Source: an uncultured Candidatus Saccharibacteria bacterium (lineage in GTDB: Bacteria > Patescibacteriota > Minisyncoccia > Minisyncoccales > PEYH01). Taken from it: a stretch of 26,358 bases of DNA. Below the pieces are notes generated by a model, which was not told the origin of the DNA, made no database searches, and saw only the letters and a list, made by a program, of their open reading frames with translations. Location of the stretch: positions 3,568-29,925 of the forward strand of contig CAYNAX010000001.1 of the NCBI GenBank assembly GCA_964395745.1, in the 5' to 3' direction. Positions 2,807-26,358 of this stretch are shown here, one piece after another. Position numbers and translations under genes: made by a program. Position 1 is the first letter of the stretch. Each line of letters starts with the position of its first letter.

Positions 2807-3887
2807 TTTCCTGTGCTGCTCTTAATGCTAACCCGATGGCATTAGTGTATTCTAGGGCTTGGTCTTTGGGGAAATTGTTTAAAACTTCAACATTAACTAA
2901 AGGATCTGCTAAATATGTGGGCAAACCAAACTCCTCTTGAAAATATTCTTTTAAGCCCTTCATTTTTGCCCCACCACCGGTTAACAATATTTTTTCTATT
3001 TTAATTCCGTTTACAAAGCTTGGGTCTTTCTGGGCTCTTGTATGATAGTAATCTATGTATTTTTTAATCTGCTCTGTAAGATCAGTGAGTGGAGGAATAA
3101 TTGCTTCAAAAGTCTCTTGCGCCTTCTTTGTTTTTTTTAAAATACCATATTTAATTTTCATCTTCTCTGCTTCTTGAGGATCAACCTTAAGGACCTTGCT
3201 GATGGATTTTGTAAAACTTCCTGAGGAAACAGGAATAGAGGTAGTAAACCTTAAAGAAGTACCAGAAAATATCATAAAACCTGTTCGGGTAGTTCCTATA
3301 TCTAAAATGAGAGAGGGAGGAAACTTTTCTTTTTTTTGGTCGAAAATAGCCCTAACGGTTGACTGTGATTCTGTCTCTAACGATATGGGTTTTAGACCTG
3401 CCAACTTCAAAGATTTCACACACTTATCAACAACCTTTTTTGGTAAGGCAACAAGCAATATATATGTTTTGTCTTTTTGAGTGTTTTCTATTATTACCTC
3501 CTGACAATCAAGATACACATCTTCAACTGAATAAGGAATGTATTTTTCTGCCTCAAAACGAATTGCTTGCTTTGCCTCCCTTTCTGTCATTTTTGGTAAA
3601 ATAATTACCTGAGAAAAAGTTTTCTCCTCTGGCAAACAAGCAACAACATAAGGAGAGGATATTTTTTTTCCTTTAACATTTTTTATTAGTTTCTTTATTA
3701 AAAGAGAGAGTTTCTCCGGCTCTTTTATTTCACCTGCCTTAACAATACCCGGGGGAACATCAACACGACCAAAACTAACAAGCACATTTTTCTTTCTTCT
3801 TTTTTCAATTTGAACAAGCTTAAGAGACCTGTCTGAGATATCCAAGCCAAAACTTTTTATTTTAAGGTTTAGTATATTGACAAGCAT
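2793..3887 (-). CDS. pilM: Type IV pilus assembly protein PilM (actin-like fold)
   Basis: GLDISDRSLKLVQ, AIRFEAEKYIPY, LILDIG and ILLTGGGAKMKGL motifs. Confidence 0.95.
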   Translation of the reverse strand: MLVNILNLKIKSFGLDISDRSLKLVQIEKRRKKNVLVSFGRVDVPPGIVKAGEIKEPEKLSLLIKKLIKNVKGKKISSPYVVACLPEEKTFSQVIILPKMTEREAKQAIRFEAEKYIPYSVEDVYLDCQEVIIENTQKDKTYILLVALPKKVVDKCVKSLKLAGLKPISLETESQSTVRAIFDQKKEKFPPSLILDIGTTRTGFMIFSGTSLRFTTSIPVSSGSFTKSISKVLKVDPQEAEKMKIKYGILKKTKKAQETFEAIIPPLTDLTEQIKKYIDYYHTRAQKDPSFVNGIKIEKILLTGGGAKMKGLKEYFQEEFGLPTYLADPLVNVEVLNNFPKDQALEYTNAIGLALRAAQENELY

Positions 3888-3888
3888 T

Positions 3889-4854
3889 TTACTTAAAGAA
3901 ATTTTCTTTAATGGTTTGAATAACTGGTGTTAAGCCTATTCTTGTTGCTTCCTTTAGTAAAGAATTTCGAGCAATTTTTTCGGCTATCGGAGGGCTATAT
4001 TTATAATATAATTCTATCAACTCTTTCCCAAGAGGTGTTTTTTCTAAATATTCGTCTCGGAATTTTCGCAAAATTACCACATCTTGCTCTAATGGAGAAC
4101 CATAAGCAGCCGTGGCAATAAAACAACCTCTCCCACCACTACCACCTCCGCCACAACCTCCTCCGCACTTCTCTTCAACTATAAAACTGCAACTGGTGCT
4201 GGAGGGTAAATAATAACCATCTCCCAGAAATTCTGTTTTTAGAGTGTAGGTTCCCGGAGCAATATTAAGCTTTAAATTTTTACTTGCTGTCCCTGAAGAA
4301 TTGGTCGTAGCGCTGGTTTGAAGGGAACCTAATTTGAACCTTATACTTTTGCCAGAAAGGTTTCCAATTTCATCGTCAACTTCTGAAAGAGTAGCACTTA
4401 AGGTTATTGTAGAATCTTCTGTACCTGAAAGAGGACCGGTATAAGAAATAGAAGTATCTTCTTTCTTAACCTGAAACTGAACTGTATCAGAGGAACCATA
4501 ATAGACATCATCTCCTTCAAAAATAATCAAAAGATCATAATTGCCTGAATTTTGGCTAAGTTTAATATCGGCTTGGGCTATTCCCTGACTATTTGTTGTT
4601 GCGCTTACCTCTTGGGTGCCTAAAATAAACTTTATTGTTTTGCCTAATAAAGGGTTGCCGCTTTCTTGTTCTATCAACTGCCCGGAAAGAATAACATAAT
4701 CAGAATACTGACCCTCTGTTGCTCCTTGATATTGAATATCAGTGTTAATTCTTGTTTCTTGAACAGATGAGGGGGTCAAAAAATAAGAATAAATTATCAG
4801 TGGTAAAAAGATTGTTAGTCCAAAAAAGATGAGAAAAAAATGTTTTTTTGACAT
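3889..4854 (-). CDS. Exported protein: N-terminal TM/signal, two tandem Ig-like repeats, Gly/Cys linker, CFI-box-CTERM-like domain
   Basis: Hydrophobic aa 6-26. Repeats at aa ~36-130 and ~131-227 share T.I.Y.G, L.GK.I.F.LG, SATTNS.G.A and G.Y.L...F.GD..Y..SS. Then KCGGGCGGGGSGGRG and GCFIATAAYGS..V..LR.FRD.YL..T.LG...I..YY..SPPIA. Confidence 0.85.
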   Translation of the reverse strand: MSKKHFFLIFFGLTIFLPLIIYSYFLTPSSVQETRINTDIQYQGATEGQYSDYVILSGQLIEQESGNPLLGKTIKFILGTQEVSATTNSQGIAQADIKLSQNSGNYDLLIIFEGDDVYYGSSDTVQFQVKKEDTSISYTGPLSGTEDSTITLSATLSEVDDEIGNLSGKSIRFKLGSLQTSATTNSSGTASKNLKLNIAPGTYTLKTEFLGDGYYLPSSTSCSFIVEEKCGGGCGGGGSGGRGCFIATAAYGSPLEQDVVILRKFRDEYLEKTPLGKELIELYYKYSPPIAEKIARNSLLKEATRIGLTPVIQTIKENFFK

Positions 4855-11535: not shown

Positions 11536-12465
11536 TTAATTCTTAGGTAGGATTATTGTAAAAATGGTTCCTTTGCTAAGTTTTGAAGAAAAATATATTT
11601 TACCCCCTAGACGCTCAACAATAGTTTTTACAATAAAAAGGCCAAGTCCTGAACCGCAAGGATCTTTCTCCATAGCATTGCTTGCTCTAAAAAATTTTTG
11701 AAAAAGAAATTGTTTTGATTTGTCAGGTATACCTATGCCTGTATCCTGAATTTTCAAGATAACTTTTTTTCTCCCCTTATTTCTTGTTATTATTCTCACC
11801 CTTCCTTTAGGTTTATTGTATCTAATTGCATTATCTAAAAGATTTTCAACAACAGTTTTTAGCAAATCCTCTGGCTGAGTTATCTCAATTTTGTCAGGAT
11901 TACAATCAAGCTCTACTTTTATATTGGAGGCCCTTATTAAGGGAGAGAAATTTTTTACCACTTCTCTTATTATTTTGTTAAGGTCGAAGGGGTGTTTAGA
12001 AAAAACTCTTGGGTTTTTAATTTTGGCAACGATTACCAGATCATTAACTAAATTGTCCATTCTTTGAATGTTTTCTTCAATAAGGTCGAAATATTCTTTA
12101 TAAGAAGGAGGGAGTTGCTTGATTTCTTTTTCTTTTTGGACACTCTCCAGCAACCATTTAAGGTTGGTAATTGGGGCCCGAAGTTGATGAGAAACAATAT
12201 TGGAAAAATCCTCTTTGAGTTTGTTTATTTCTACTAGATCTTCCAAACTTCGGGTGATAACATAAGCAATAACAAACAGGATTGCAGAAATAGCAGAAAC
12301 TATTAAAGCAACGATACGCGGATCATCAATATATCTTTGGCCCAGAAAATAGAAAAAGATAGTTGAGACAATGTTAATAACGCCCATCACCAAGAACAAG
12401 AACTGAGGACACTGCCACAGAGGAAGGCCTAAACTTTTACAGTTTGAGATAAATTTTAGTCTCAT
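11536..12465 (-). CDS. Membrane sensor histidine kinase (2 TM, HisKA, HATPase_c)
   Basis: Two hydrophobic helices, H-box SHQLRAP, N-box NLLDNAIRY, G1 DTGIGIP, G2 GSGLGL. Confidence 0.93.
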   Translation of the reverse strand: MRLKFISNCKSLGLPLWQCPQFLFLVMGVINIVSTIFFYFLGQRYIDDPRIVALIVSAISAILFVIAYVITRSLEDLVEINKLKEDFSNIVSHQLRAPITNLKWLLESVQKEKEIKQLPPSYKEYFDLIEENIQRMDNLVNDLVIVAKIKNPRVFSKHPFDLNKIIREVVKNFSPLIRASNIKVELDCNPDKIEITQPEDLLKTVVENLLDNAIRYNKPKGRVRIITRNKGRKKVILKIQDTGIGIPDKSKQFLFQKFFRASNAMEKDPCGSGLGLFIVKTIVERLGGKIYFSSKLSKGTIFTIILPKN

Positions 12466-12471
12466 AGTTTT

Positions 12472-12501
12472 ATTCTATCATATTGTTTCAACCTCTGTCG
12501 A
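12472..12501 (-). promoter_or_regulatory. Putative extended -10 promoter of the HK-REC-pilus operon (leaderless geometry)
   Basis: Minus strand TCGACA (12501-12496), N18, TGA-TAGAAT (12477-12472), then 6 nt to the ATG at 12465. Confidence 0.55.
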
Positions 12502-12504
12502 CCT

Positions 12505-12528
12505 TTCGATATTTCGATATCTCGATAT
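12505..12528. repeat. Octamer direct repeat x3 (TTCGATAT TTCGATAT CTCGATAT)
   Basis: Read directly at 12505-12512, 12513-12520 and 12521-12528 in the divergent HK/rpsT intergenic region. Confidence 0.85.
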
Positions 12529-24936: not shown

Positions 24937-25437
24937 ATGATCATCTTAGGCATAGACCCGGGAACAGCCACCACAGGTTACGGACTAATAAAGTTTTATA
25001 AAAGATCAGGCAGAATAGATTTAATAGATTACGGCTGCATCTTTACTACCCCAGAATTTTCTGATGCTCAGCGACTCAATCAAACATATAAAAAATTAAA
25101 TCAGGTGGTTAAAAAAAATAAGCCGGATATTTTGGCAATAGAAAGTATTTTCTTTTTTAAAAATTCAAAAACAGCCATAAAAGTAAGCCAAACAAAAGGA
25201 GTTATTTTATTTTGGGCAGCAAAAAACAAAATTCCTGTTTACGAACTTACCCCTCTTCAGGTAAAATTAGGAATTGTAGGTTATGGCCGCGCCAAAAAAA
25301 AGCAGGTACAAAGAATGATTAAAGAATTGCTTCAATTAAAAGAAATTCCAAAACCCGACGATGCTGCTGATGCTTTGGCTGTTGCTATTTGCTGCTCAAC
25401 AGCAATCAAAAACCAAAAATGTGAAAAAAGTTCTTGA
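24937..25437 (+). CDS. ruvC: Holliday junction resolvase RuvC
   Basis: IILGIDPGTATTGYG, AIESIFF, GYGRAKKKQV and PDDAADALAVA. Confidence 0.98.
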   Translation: MIILGIDPGTATTGYGLIKFYKRSGRIDLIDYGCIFTTPEFSDAQRLNQTYKKLNQVVKKNKPDILAIESIFFFKNSKTAIKVSQTKGVILFWAAKNKIPVYELTPLQVKLGIVGYGRAKKKQVQRMIKELLQLKEIPKPDDAADALAVAICCSTAIKNQKCEKSS

Positions 25438-25461
25438 CAGGTTCTTTTCAAAAAATATAAT
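25434..25461 (+). promoter_or_regulatory. Consensus sigma70 promoter of the acidic mini-protein
   Basis: TTGACA (25434-25439, overlapping the ruvC stop), N16, TATAAT (25456-25461). Confidence 0.75.
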
Positions 25462-25517
25462 TACCTTATAGGCCACAAAGGTCGCCCCTAAATTAAAAAA
25501 TAAATAATTTTAAATTT

Positions 25518-25700
25518 ATGGAATATAAATCAGAATTATTCCTTGTAAGCCAAGAAGAATTAGACGAAAACGAAGAAGAAATGCCCGAGGAAGAAGAGGA
25601 GACCACAGAAGAAGAAAGTTGGGATGAGGAAGGCGAAGAAGAATTAGGAGGAGATGAAGAAGAAGAGGAATTGGGAGAGGAAGAGGAAGAAGAAGTATAA
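25518..25700 (+). CDS. 60-aa hyper-acidic, probably disordered protein
   Basis: 32 Glu + 3 Asp in 60 aa with a single Lys. Mixed GAA/GAG codons rather than a simple repeat. Flanked by its own promoter and terminator. Confidence 0.75.
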   Translation: MEYKSELFLVSQEELDENEEEMPEEEEETTEEESWDEEGEEELGGDEEEEELGEEEEEEV

Positions 25701-25710
25701 TACTTTTTTC

Positions 25711-25743
25711 AAAAACCCCCTCGCTTGAAGCGAGGGGGTTTTT
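25711..25743. terminator. Strong intrinsic terminator (bidirectional geometry)
   Basis: aaaaaccccctcgct-tga-agcgagggggttttt: a 15-bp inverted repeat with a GC core and flanking A/T tracts, 11 nt after the acidic ORF stop. Confidence 0.92.
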
Positions 25744-25752
25744 GCTTATAAT
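25725..25752 (+). promoter_or_regulatory. Putative promoter of the PBP gene, with -35 in the terminator loop
   Basis: TTGAAG (25725-25730), N16, TATAAT (25747-25752), then 8 nt to the ATG at 25761. Confidence 0.55.
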
Positions 25753-25760
25753 ATATAAAT

Positions 25761-26358
25761 ATGCTTACTCAAAAGAAAGATAAAAAAATTATCGTAACTA
25801 AAAAAAGATTCTTTTTAACAATCTTCAAATTCTTTCTTATTTGTGTCGTTTTTTTTATTGTTGCGGGTTTGGGTATTTTTATCTATTACGCTAAAGATCT
25901 TCCTCGCCCCGAGGTTTTTGAAGAAAGACAACTGGCTTTGCCCACAAAAATATATGATCGCACTGGTCAAGTGCTTCTTTATACAATTTATGGAGAAGAG
26001 CGAAGAGAGCCAGTGAAATTAAACGAGGTTTCTCCTTATTTGATCAAGGCTGTCCTTGCCGCAGAAGACAAAAATTTTTACAATCACCACGGTATAGATT
26101 TCCAGGGCATTATTAGGTCTGTTTTAATTAATCTAAGAATTAAAAAGCCTGTCTATGGAGGATCAACTATTTCCCAACAACTAATTCGTTCCACCTTTCT
26201 TACTCCTCAAAAAACCATTTCCCGAAAAATAAAAGAAATAATTCTAACCTTAGAACTAGAAAGACGATATTCCAAGGACCAAATTTTAGAATGGTATCTT
26301 AACCAAATACCTTTTGGTCCTAATATTTATGGAGTTGAAGAAGCAGCCCGATCTTACT
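25761..26358 (+). CDS. Class A penicillin-binding protein (transglycosylase domain), partial, runs off the window; absent from the ORF track
   Basis: My translation: MLTQKKDKK..TM..YAKDLPRP..PTKIYDRTG..AAEDKNFYNHHGID..GGSTISQQL..RKIKE..LEWYLNQIPFG, which gives the GT51 motifs EDxxFxxHxG, GxSTxxQQL, RKxxE and LExYLN. Confidence 0.95.
   Translation, partial: MLTQKKDKKIIVTKKRFFLTIFKFFLICVVFFIVAGLGIFIYYAKDLPRPEVFEERQLALPTKIYDRTGQVLLYTIYGEERREPVKLNEVSPYLIKAVLAAEDKNFYNHHGIDFQGIIRSVLINLRIKKPVYGGSTISQQLIRSTFLTPQKTISRKIKEIILTLELERRYSKDQILEWYLNQIPFGPNIYGVEEAARSY

Follow-up and report, generated by a model that had tools for sequence, protein, structure and literature searches.

What kind of gene lies between ruvC and a penicillin-binding protein (PBP) gene in the genome of an uncultured Candidatus Saccharibacteria bacterium (GTDB lineage Patescibacteriota; Minisyncoccia; Minisyncoccales; PEYH01) is the question raised by the stretch of DNA analyzed here, referred to as the window (26,358 nt; positions 3,568 to 29,925 of the forward strand of contig CAYNAX010000001.1, assembly GCA_964395745.1). 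The ORF listing of the window holds an open reading frame (ORF) at 25518-25700 on the forward strand (stop codon TAA, 25698-25700), which encodes a microprotein of 60 amino acids, MEYKSELFLVSQEELDENEEEMPEEEEETTEEESWDEEGEEELGGDEEEEELGEEEEEEV. As the original prediction for this locus had it, 35 of the 60 residues (58%) are Asp or Glu and a single one is Lys, for a net charge of -34. Such a composition is far beyond chance: among the 2,023 ATG-started ORFs of at least 25 aa in the six frames of the 512-kb assembly (93 contigs, about 85% complete, 35% G+C), the acidic ORF is the only one to contain 40% or more Asp/Glu. The remainder of the proteome is Lys-rich, again as predicted, and net basic (K 10.2%, R 4.5%, D 4.1%, E 7.8%), with a mean net charge per protein of +7.5 and a positive charge on 75% of the proteins. 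Based on the genomic evidence presented here, the acidic ORF is a genuine protein-coding gene with strong expression signals of its own; it belongs to a conserved family outside Pfam, NCBIfam and PHROGs, the genes of which are kept immediately after ruvC across a large clade of Paceibacterota/Parcubacteria.

When considering the 41 related genomes, ruvC was located in 37, and an acidic ORF lies directly 3' of it in 29 of 29 relatives searched. Both same-genus genomes have the ORF with the same start and with tails that differ by in-frame indels (76 and 68 aa), and all remaining genera of the family, as well as other families of the order, have a small acidic ORF 3' of ruvC. A hidden Markov model (HMM) built from three same-genus sequences matched that genus only, and the members of the family were therefore collected by synteny and DNA patterns. 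Read jointly, all these loci provide 37 full members of 25-84 aa, with net charges from -12 to -47. A metagenome scan for a -10 hexamer followed by the leader octamer AAAGGTCG (see below) and ATGGARTAY returned 108 matches, 22 of which are further members of up to 101 aa (ruvC upstream in 20), so that the family ranges overall from 25 to 101 aa; the other 86 matches are mostly one unrelated, transposase-like ORF that fits the pattern by chance. Among the named RuvC loci, 12 of 80 carry the acidic gene, all of them from metagenome-assembled genomes (MAGs) of the candidate phyla radiation (CPR)/Paceibacterota type; ten of these pass a screen set at 38% Asp/Glu, and the other two (L041 and L053) display the leader octamer and the N-terminal motif with a less acidic tail. 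The same screen 3' of ruvC detected no such gene in the non-CPR loci sampled, nor in the sampled Falkowbacteria, Uhrbacteria, Peregrinibacteria and true Saccharibacteria. Some of the loci represent the same MAG, sampled twice through two collections. Altogether, ruvC is found immediately upstream in 57 of the 59 members and the gene that follows is a PBP gene in 46 and a convergent tyrS in 9, while one of the members unlinked to ruvC adjoins the gene of an XerD-like recombinase. The search for short acidic ORFs 3' of ruvC in Patescibacteria that had been suggested for this locus has thus found them in all 29 relatives, in 12 named CPR MAGs and on 20 metagenome contigs; the outcome named beforehand as fatal to the idea, the lack of a conserved acidic ORF at the syntenic position, is contradicted by every relative examined.

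No known family emerged from the databases searched. Profile searches of Pfam, NCBIfam, PHROGs and PDB sequences with 14 members matched no family, 1.84 billion representative proteins searched by HMM yielded 0 matches, and a word-indexed search of 5.8 billion proteins gave no match either, its result being swamped by poly-E words. An exact look-up of eight members in a collection of 15 billion proteins found none of them, which suggests that gene callers skip such ORFs. Searches with Rfam at gathering and permissive thresholds gave merely weak matches over the terminator region, and no comparable free-standing bacterial polyanion family turned up in full-text searches of the literature or in the family libraries.

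The pattern of variation indicates what is being maintained. ATG, frame and stop are retained in 37 of 38 orthologous loci. The codons of conserved residues vary at their third position (Tyr TAC/TAT 16:8; Asp GAT/GAC 11:6; Asn AAT/AAC 8:8; Gln CAA/CAG 11:6) and, at one hydrophobic position, the second codon position is an invariant T with positions 1 and 3 variable. We have thereby demonstrated purifying selection on the microprotein. The tails are Asp- and Thr-rich and GGA-poor in other genera, some of which use GAT/GAC-rich codons; acidity is thus reached via differing codons, and it is the charge that is conserved, not a GAA repeat or an RNA sequence. Same-genus members, some of them near-identical, total 60, 65, 67 or 76 aa depending on the length of the tail, and this points to a rapid expansion and contraction of repeats.

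Alignments define the N-terminal family motif M-E-Y-x-D-K-x-Φ-(xx)-Φ-Φ-N-Q-E-E, with variants such as MEEEFLTRLINxEDD and MTINPFLNQEE. In the window, alignments and AlphaFold2 delimit the conserved segment as residues 1-17 (MEYKSELFLVSQEELDE; 25518-25568, forward strand). The original prediction had singled out a hydrophobic patch, YKSELFLV; the N-terminal segment to which it belongs is indeed conserved, but the motif extends beyond these eight residues. AlphaFold2 places a helix at residues 3-17 alone and with low confidence (mean pLDDT about 60, pTM 0.16), and this segment is a predicted amphipathic helix. It is followed by the poly-Glu/Asp tail (25569-25697, forward strand; Val at its end), which is predicted to be disordered, AlphaFold2 giving no secondary structure past residue 17. 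Across the family the tail is free in length and sequence and kept in composition. Of the 37 members, 26 end in a hydrophobic residue (V, L, I, F, M or A), compared with a hydrophobic share of 12.5% within the tails (binomial p about 1e-15, with members treated as phylogenetically independent), and the C-terminus usually reads [DE][DE][DE]-hydrophobic (e.g. EEEEEV in this copy, and EEEL, TDEF and DEEEI). Neither this hydrophobic end nor the AAAGGTCG box of the leader had been noticed in the original prediction.

The expression signals of the acidic gene begin within ruvC itself (24937-25437, forward strand; Pfam PF02075, E 3.7e-47), the stop codon of which (TGA, 25435-25437) falls within the -35 hexamer of a sigma-70 promoter (25434-25461, forward strand). 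This promoter, TTGACA (25434-25439) and TATAAT (25456-25461) separated by 16 nt, matches the consensus at 12 of 12 positions and is the sole perfect site in the 2.4 kb scanned; an exact TTGACA-N16-18-TATAAT is retained in 29 of the 38 orthologous loci. Past the stop codon an intrinsic terminator (25711-25743, forward strand) consists of AAAAACCCCCTCGC-TTGAA-GCGAGGGGGTTTTT, with TTGAA as the loop and a stem of 16 pairs on folding (14-16 bp by our counts); a terminator is found 0-35 nt past the stop codon in 32 of 38 loci. A simple terminator scan did not pick up this hairpin, probably because the T-run is counted as part of the stem. The consensus promoter and the strong terminator, put at 15 bp, had both been recognized from the start. 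The description of the gene as monocistronic holds for the transcript issued from the strong internal promoter; it is too narrow otherwise, since no terminator separates ruvC from the acidic ORF and read-through from yebC-ruvC, as far as can be judged from the DNA, probably covers the ORF as well.

Between promoter and start codon lies the leader box AAAGGTCG (25477-25484, forward strand), 15 nt past the -10 hexamer and 33 nt before the ATG. The octamer is invariant in 32 of 38 orthologous leaders, the flanks of which diverge, and it is located 12-19 nt past the -10 (about 30 nt in one genus) and mostly 23-41 nt, at most 100 nt, before the ATG. Such an exact, sense-strand AAAGGTCG in a 5' leader, about 20-60 nt ahead of the start, is what we refer to as the AAAGGUCG box. 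The octamer occurs 20 times in this genome, compared to 10.7 copies expected, and at least 12 copies are sense-oriented in 5' leaders, namely those of HU, GroES, Hsp20, type IV pilin, a KhpA-like KH protein, dodecin, several secreted proteins and a histidine kinase. The histidine-kinase gene is in the window (11536-12465; its AAAGGTCG copy at 12499-12506, reverse strand), and other copies are on contigs C2, C7, C12, C14, C16, C24, C39 and C74 of genome G000. A further copy is located 42 nt before ssb, within the upstream coding sequence. Among relatives the octamer is present upstream of HU in 16 of 17 and after ruvC in 29 of 29. The genes for HU, GroES, Hsp20, pilin and SSB are typically abundantly expressed. 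We read the box as a putative marker of a class of strongly expressed mRNAs that would include the acidic gene. In the groES leader (G000 contig C24, about 4289-4315) a CIRCE-like inverted repeat, TTAGCAGTT-N9-AATTGCTAA, has the 9-nt spacer AAAGGTCGG; the leader box of this gene thus lies inside the presumed HrcA operator.

The 3' ends of the 16S rRNA genes of relatives deserve mention beside this box, the present assembly having no 16S gene. In three related genera (L141 3166-3230; L142 2925-2980; L145 1549-1490, reverse strand) the sequence past helix 45 reads AGACTATTTCATT, AGATCATTTAATT or AGATCATACAATA in place of GGATCACCTCCTT, which indicates that the CCUCC anti-Shine-Dalgarno is missing in these genera. 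The 16S loci retrieved contain no CACCTCCTT, nor do the approximately 500 nt read past the end of the L141 gene. In this genome AAGGAGGTG occurs 5-9 nt before ATGs in 19 copies, versus 6 for the reversed control. Pairing of AAAGGTCG with 16S rRNA was considered as well and is unsupported, no exact complement of the octamer being found in the 16S loci of the two relatives searched (L142 and L144).

What could such a protein do? The original prediction had offered a nucleic-acid mimic, a prothymosin-like chaperone, a factor resembling the delta tail or a cation buffer as candidate roles. We tentatively favor, at somewhat less than an even chance, a general mechanism in which the microprotein acts as an electrostatic nucleic-acid mimic or counter-polyelectrolyte, present in presumably high amounts. 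The conserved N-terminal helix of about 15 residues would be the docking element and the Glu/Asp tail, conserved in charge rather than in sequence or length, the effector. The helix, perhaps together with the C-terminal tip, would hold the microprotein on a partner, leaving the tail to occupy or screen the basic DNA- or RNA-binding surfaces of recombination, nucleoid or transcription proteins; basic proteins would thereby be kept off non-specific nucleic acid, or nucleic acid would be displaced from them. This role fits a gene with strong expression signals whose product is the sole polyanion of its genome and joins a docking-type helix to a tail in which only the charge is conserved; the strongly basic proteome suits it as well. 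DNA-recombination genes are its recurrent neighbors (ruvC in 57 of 59 members, the XerD-like recombinase gene in one outlier), and a polybasic candidate surface is found in the RpoD of relatives, which carries about 45 Lys-rich residues (MAKKTIKKKKVSKKKTPAKKK…) before region 1.1 (L138 1024-2223 in G006; L137 1024-2220 in G005). Acidic disordered regions have precedents in the RNA polymerase (RNAP) delta subunit (PMC7749165), SutA (10.1101/423384) and SPO1 Gp44 (PMC8208478), and an HU-binding mimic has one in DMP12 (PMC3643605).

Several points weigh against this proposal. None of 132 RuvC loci encodes a RuvC-acidic fusion, and there is no phyletic link to the protein combining sigma-70 region 4 with HARE-HTH that is discussed below, which occurs with or without the acidic gene. 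The known DNA mimics are mostly folded, while the microprotein is predicted, at the low confidence given above, to be disordered. Synteny may persist in streamlined CPR genomes without functional coupling, and the hydrophobic last residue could mark a termination context or a degradation signal. Finally, acidic runs near the N-terminus reportedly destabilize translating ribosomes (PMC9718836, 10.1101/2021.02.02.429294), which makes the actual protein yield uncertain.

Several known systems resemble the microprotein in part. The C-terminal region of the delta subunit (RpoE) of Firmicutes and Mollicutes is likewise a long, disordered, Glu/Asp-rich polyanion from monoderm-type bacteria with small genomes, and it is thought to be a nucleic-acid mimic displacing DNA or RNA (PMC7749165). 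The acidic tail resembles this region in its charge (58% Asp/Glu and -34 for the whole microprotein) and in the lack of predicted structure past residue 17; however, delta possesses a folded N-terminal HARE-HTH domain where the microprotein has just a helix of about 15 residues. No Pfam or NCBIfam match to HARE-HTH (PF05066) was obtained for the 14 members, and only about 15 non-acidic residues precede the tail. SutA of P. aeruginosa is also a small acidic protein with one helix and disordered tails, the acidic disordered parts of which carry its activity (10.1101/423384). It differs in that its central helix binds the beta1 domain of RNAP and in being 105 aa long and far less acidic, whereas the helix of the microprotein is N-terminal and its gene linked to ruvC; no significant match to SutA emerged from profile searches of Pfam, NCBIfam, PDB and the 1.84 billion representative proteins. 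DNA mimics, like the microprotein, are small and strongly negative; they occupy the DNA sites of nucleoid, recombination or transcription proteins. For instance, DMP12 binds HU (PMC3643605), T7 gp5.9 blocks RecBCD (PMC9836394), and the flexible acidic mimic domain of SPO1 Gp44 can occupy DNA-binding sites (PMC8208478). The charges of the 37 members (-12 to -47) are of the kind seen in Ocr, ArdA, DMP12 and gp5.9. Yet most of these mimics adopt a fold that sets out their charges in a defined pattern, and many serve phages as weapons, whereas the microprotein is chromosomal, vertically conserved, predicted to be mostly disordered and variable in its tail. AlphaFold2 gives it one helix (pLDDT 60, pTM 0.16), and folding upon binding or dimerization is possible. 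The tips of SSB and T7 gp2.5 (…DDDIPF) combine an acidic run with a hydrophobic, free-carboxylate end and serve as docking peptide and internal mimic of single-stranded DNA. The microprotein similarly closes an acidic run on a hydrophobic residue, but the D-D-D-[IL]-P-F ending is not found, none of the 37 members ending in IPF; the SSB of this genome ends in …VDEIPF.

Prothymosin-alpha, a eukaryotic protein of about 110 aa with extreme negative charge and no hydrophobic core, acts in a charge-dependent manner and pairs with polybasic partners. It shares the extreme charge with the microprotein and differs in its eukaryotic origin and in having no homology to it. A bolder version of our proposal, which we regard as a long shot, would make the microprotein an abundant "bacterial prothymosin", a dedicated counter-ion partner of polybasic tails that gates DNA access of the core nucleic-acid machinery. 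Its candidate partners would be the primary sigma factor, by virtue of its Lys-rich N-terminal extension, and also RuvC and HU, on which it would dock via the N-terminal helix to form a disordered, high-affinity electrostatic complex. The microprotein would then fall within the AAAGGUCG-box expression class, a class that may replace Shine-Dalgarno control where 16S rRNA has lost the anti-Shine-Dalgarno.

The neighborhood of the gene suggests a narrower role, that of a dedicated RuvC modulator. With the helix docked on RuvC, the tail would imitate DNA within the dimer's basic cleft, holding back Holliday-junction cleavage by this resolvase or setting its timing. Adjacency to ruvC is kept in 57 of 59 members, whereas the gene on the other side varies (PBP1A-type or convergent tyrS), ruvC and the acidic gene are not separated by a terminator, the C-termini of RuvC are short and basic, and one unlinked member lies beside an XerD-like recombinase gene. 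We nevertheless consider this role unlikely: a perfect promoter and a box shared with HU and GroES imply expression far above the need of a low-abundance resolvase, the two proteins are fused in 0 of 132 loci, two members lie away from ruvC, and many CPR lineages have a very similar RuvC without the acidic gene. A substitution for RuvA, hinted at in the original prediction because ruvA usually follows ruvC, can be rejected, as ruvA is encoded elsewhere in 30 of 41 related genomes; its absence from this assembly fits the completeness of about 85%. Rather unlikely, too, is an RNAP-associated factor that supplies a polyanionic tail in trans, like delta or like an acidic sigma region 1.1, and clears nucleic acid from RNAP or neutralizes the polybasic stretch with which the primary sigma factor begins. 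The Lys-rich residues ahead of region 1.1 in the RpoD of relatives speak for it, as does the resemblance of a short helix with an acidic disordered tail to SutA (10.1101/423384) and to the C-terminal region of delta (PMC7749165). These genomes moreover encode a protein of sigma-70 region 4 and HARE-HTH, the fold of the N-terminal domain of delta, without an acidic tail (in G000, about 340 aa with region 4 followed by HARE-HTH domain(s); contig C15:6596-7619, reverse strand). However, a full or partial homologue of this protein is present in 30 of 30 other Patescibacteria genomes tested, irrespective of the acidic gene, no sequence similarity to delta or SutA was found, and there is no genomic linkage to rpo genes. 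Two related ideas were discarded: a delta subunit split between the two proteins, suggested by co-occurrence, since the sigma-HARE-HTH protein is universal in the Patescibacteria tested; and a sigma factor lacking region 1.1, since PF03979 is present with the polybasic extension ahead of it.

The value of the gene might instead reside in its translation or in bulk charge, as a buffer of Mg2+ or polyamines or as an mgtL-like, hard-to-translate ORF, the translation of which would destabilize ribosomes, respond to Mg2+ and thereby set how much transcription passes the terminator into the next gene. Its acidic runs with Pro (MPEEEE, EPEE) match ribosome-destabilizing sequences described elsewhere (10.1101/2021.02.02.429294, PMC9718836, PMC11162784), most loci have just 0-12 nt between its stop codon and the terminator stem, so that a terminating ribosome could hinder the hairpin, and its tail length is freely variable. 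Such a function is improbable in our view, because the downstream gene is inconstant and, being a convergent tyrS in several lineages, leaves nothing to attenuate there, because the PBP gene has its own promoter, and because an N-terminal motif and a hydrophobic C-terminus conserved as protein would be needless for a pure buffer or sensor. The locus also differs from MgtL-type leader peptides in that the acidic gene has its own terminator and the next gene is either convergent or under its own promoter. We give hardly any credence to a non-protein explanation, in which the product is a GA-rich small RNA (e.g. acting as a sponge of ribosomes or of an RNA-binding protein) or the ORF arose by chance in a promoter-terminator cassette. 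The transcript is indeed short and purine-rich with Shine-Dalgarno-like GGAGG strings, indels of GAA repeats come in threes even without coding constraint, and the ORF is apparently uncalled by gene callers. Against this stand the ATG, frame and stop kept in 37 of 38 loci, the synonymous third-position variation, the Asp-rich, GGA-poor tails that keep the charge and lose the RNA sequence, and the absence of an Rfam family, the terminator hairpin being the only strong structure on folding (fold z -2.6).

If the electrostatic role that we favor is correct, this extreme polyanion, free-standing and equipped with a conserved docking helix, would exemplify a charge-driven regulation by disordered proteins that is rare in bacteria, and would do so in organisms with unusually basic proteomes. 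With this family, the small gene sets of Parcubacteria-type CPR bacteria (about 500-700 genes) gain a protein that is conserved and probably abundant. It apparently escapes standard gene calling and family databases, and inventories of the "core CPR proteome" may thus lack short, low-complexity genes. Its fixed position after ruvC provides a testable lead toward recombination, nucleoid organization or transcription, and its leader links it to the AAAGGUCG box, an apparent lineage-specific signal for expression in bacteria with a 16S rRNA devoid of the usual anti-Shine-Dalgarno.

The neighbors of the acidic gene in the window are yebC (PF01709) and ruvC (PF02075) on one side and the PBP1A-type transglycosylase gene (PF00912; ATG at 25761) on the other. 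The promoter of the latter (25725-25752, forward strand; TTGAAG-16-TATAAT, 10 of 12 consensus positions) is embedded in the terminator of the acidic gene, its -35 TTGAAG lying within the loop and the 3' arm. The ATG is located just 8 nt past the -10, and the PBP mRNA would thus be leaderless or nearly so. This terminator/promoter sequence is near-identical in both same-genus genomes. In one family of the order (relative G026; L012 1581-2038) the AAAGGTCG box that follows ruvC belongs to the leader of another gene, the product of which is a membrane-anchored protein of 136 aa with a Ser/Glu/Asp/Leu-rich tail and not the microprotein. About 65 of the matches in the metagenome scan (among L146-L253, many labelled human gut) correspond to a single, near-identical transposase-like ORF of 324 aa (MEYSNRKKKTKREEFLDAMEE…), upstream of which TATAAT…AAAGGTCG…ATGGAATAT occurs by chance; this occurrence is probably unrelated to the CPR box. 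In the 16S gene of another relative (G006; L144 3019-3110) the canonical sequence stops directly after GAAGTCGT, near the 3' end of the gene, and the stretch inserted there, with its two CGACCTAT repeats, is a possible intervening sequence.

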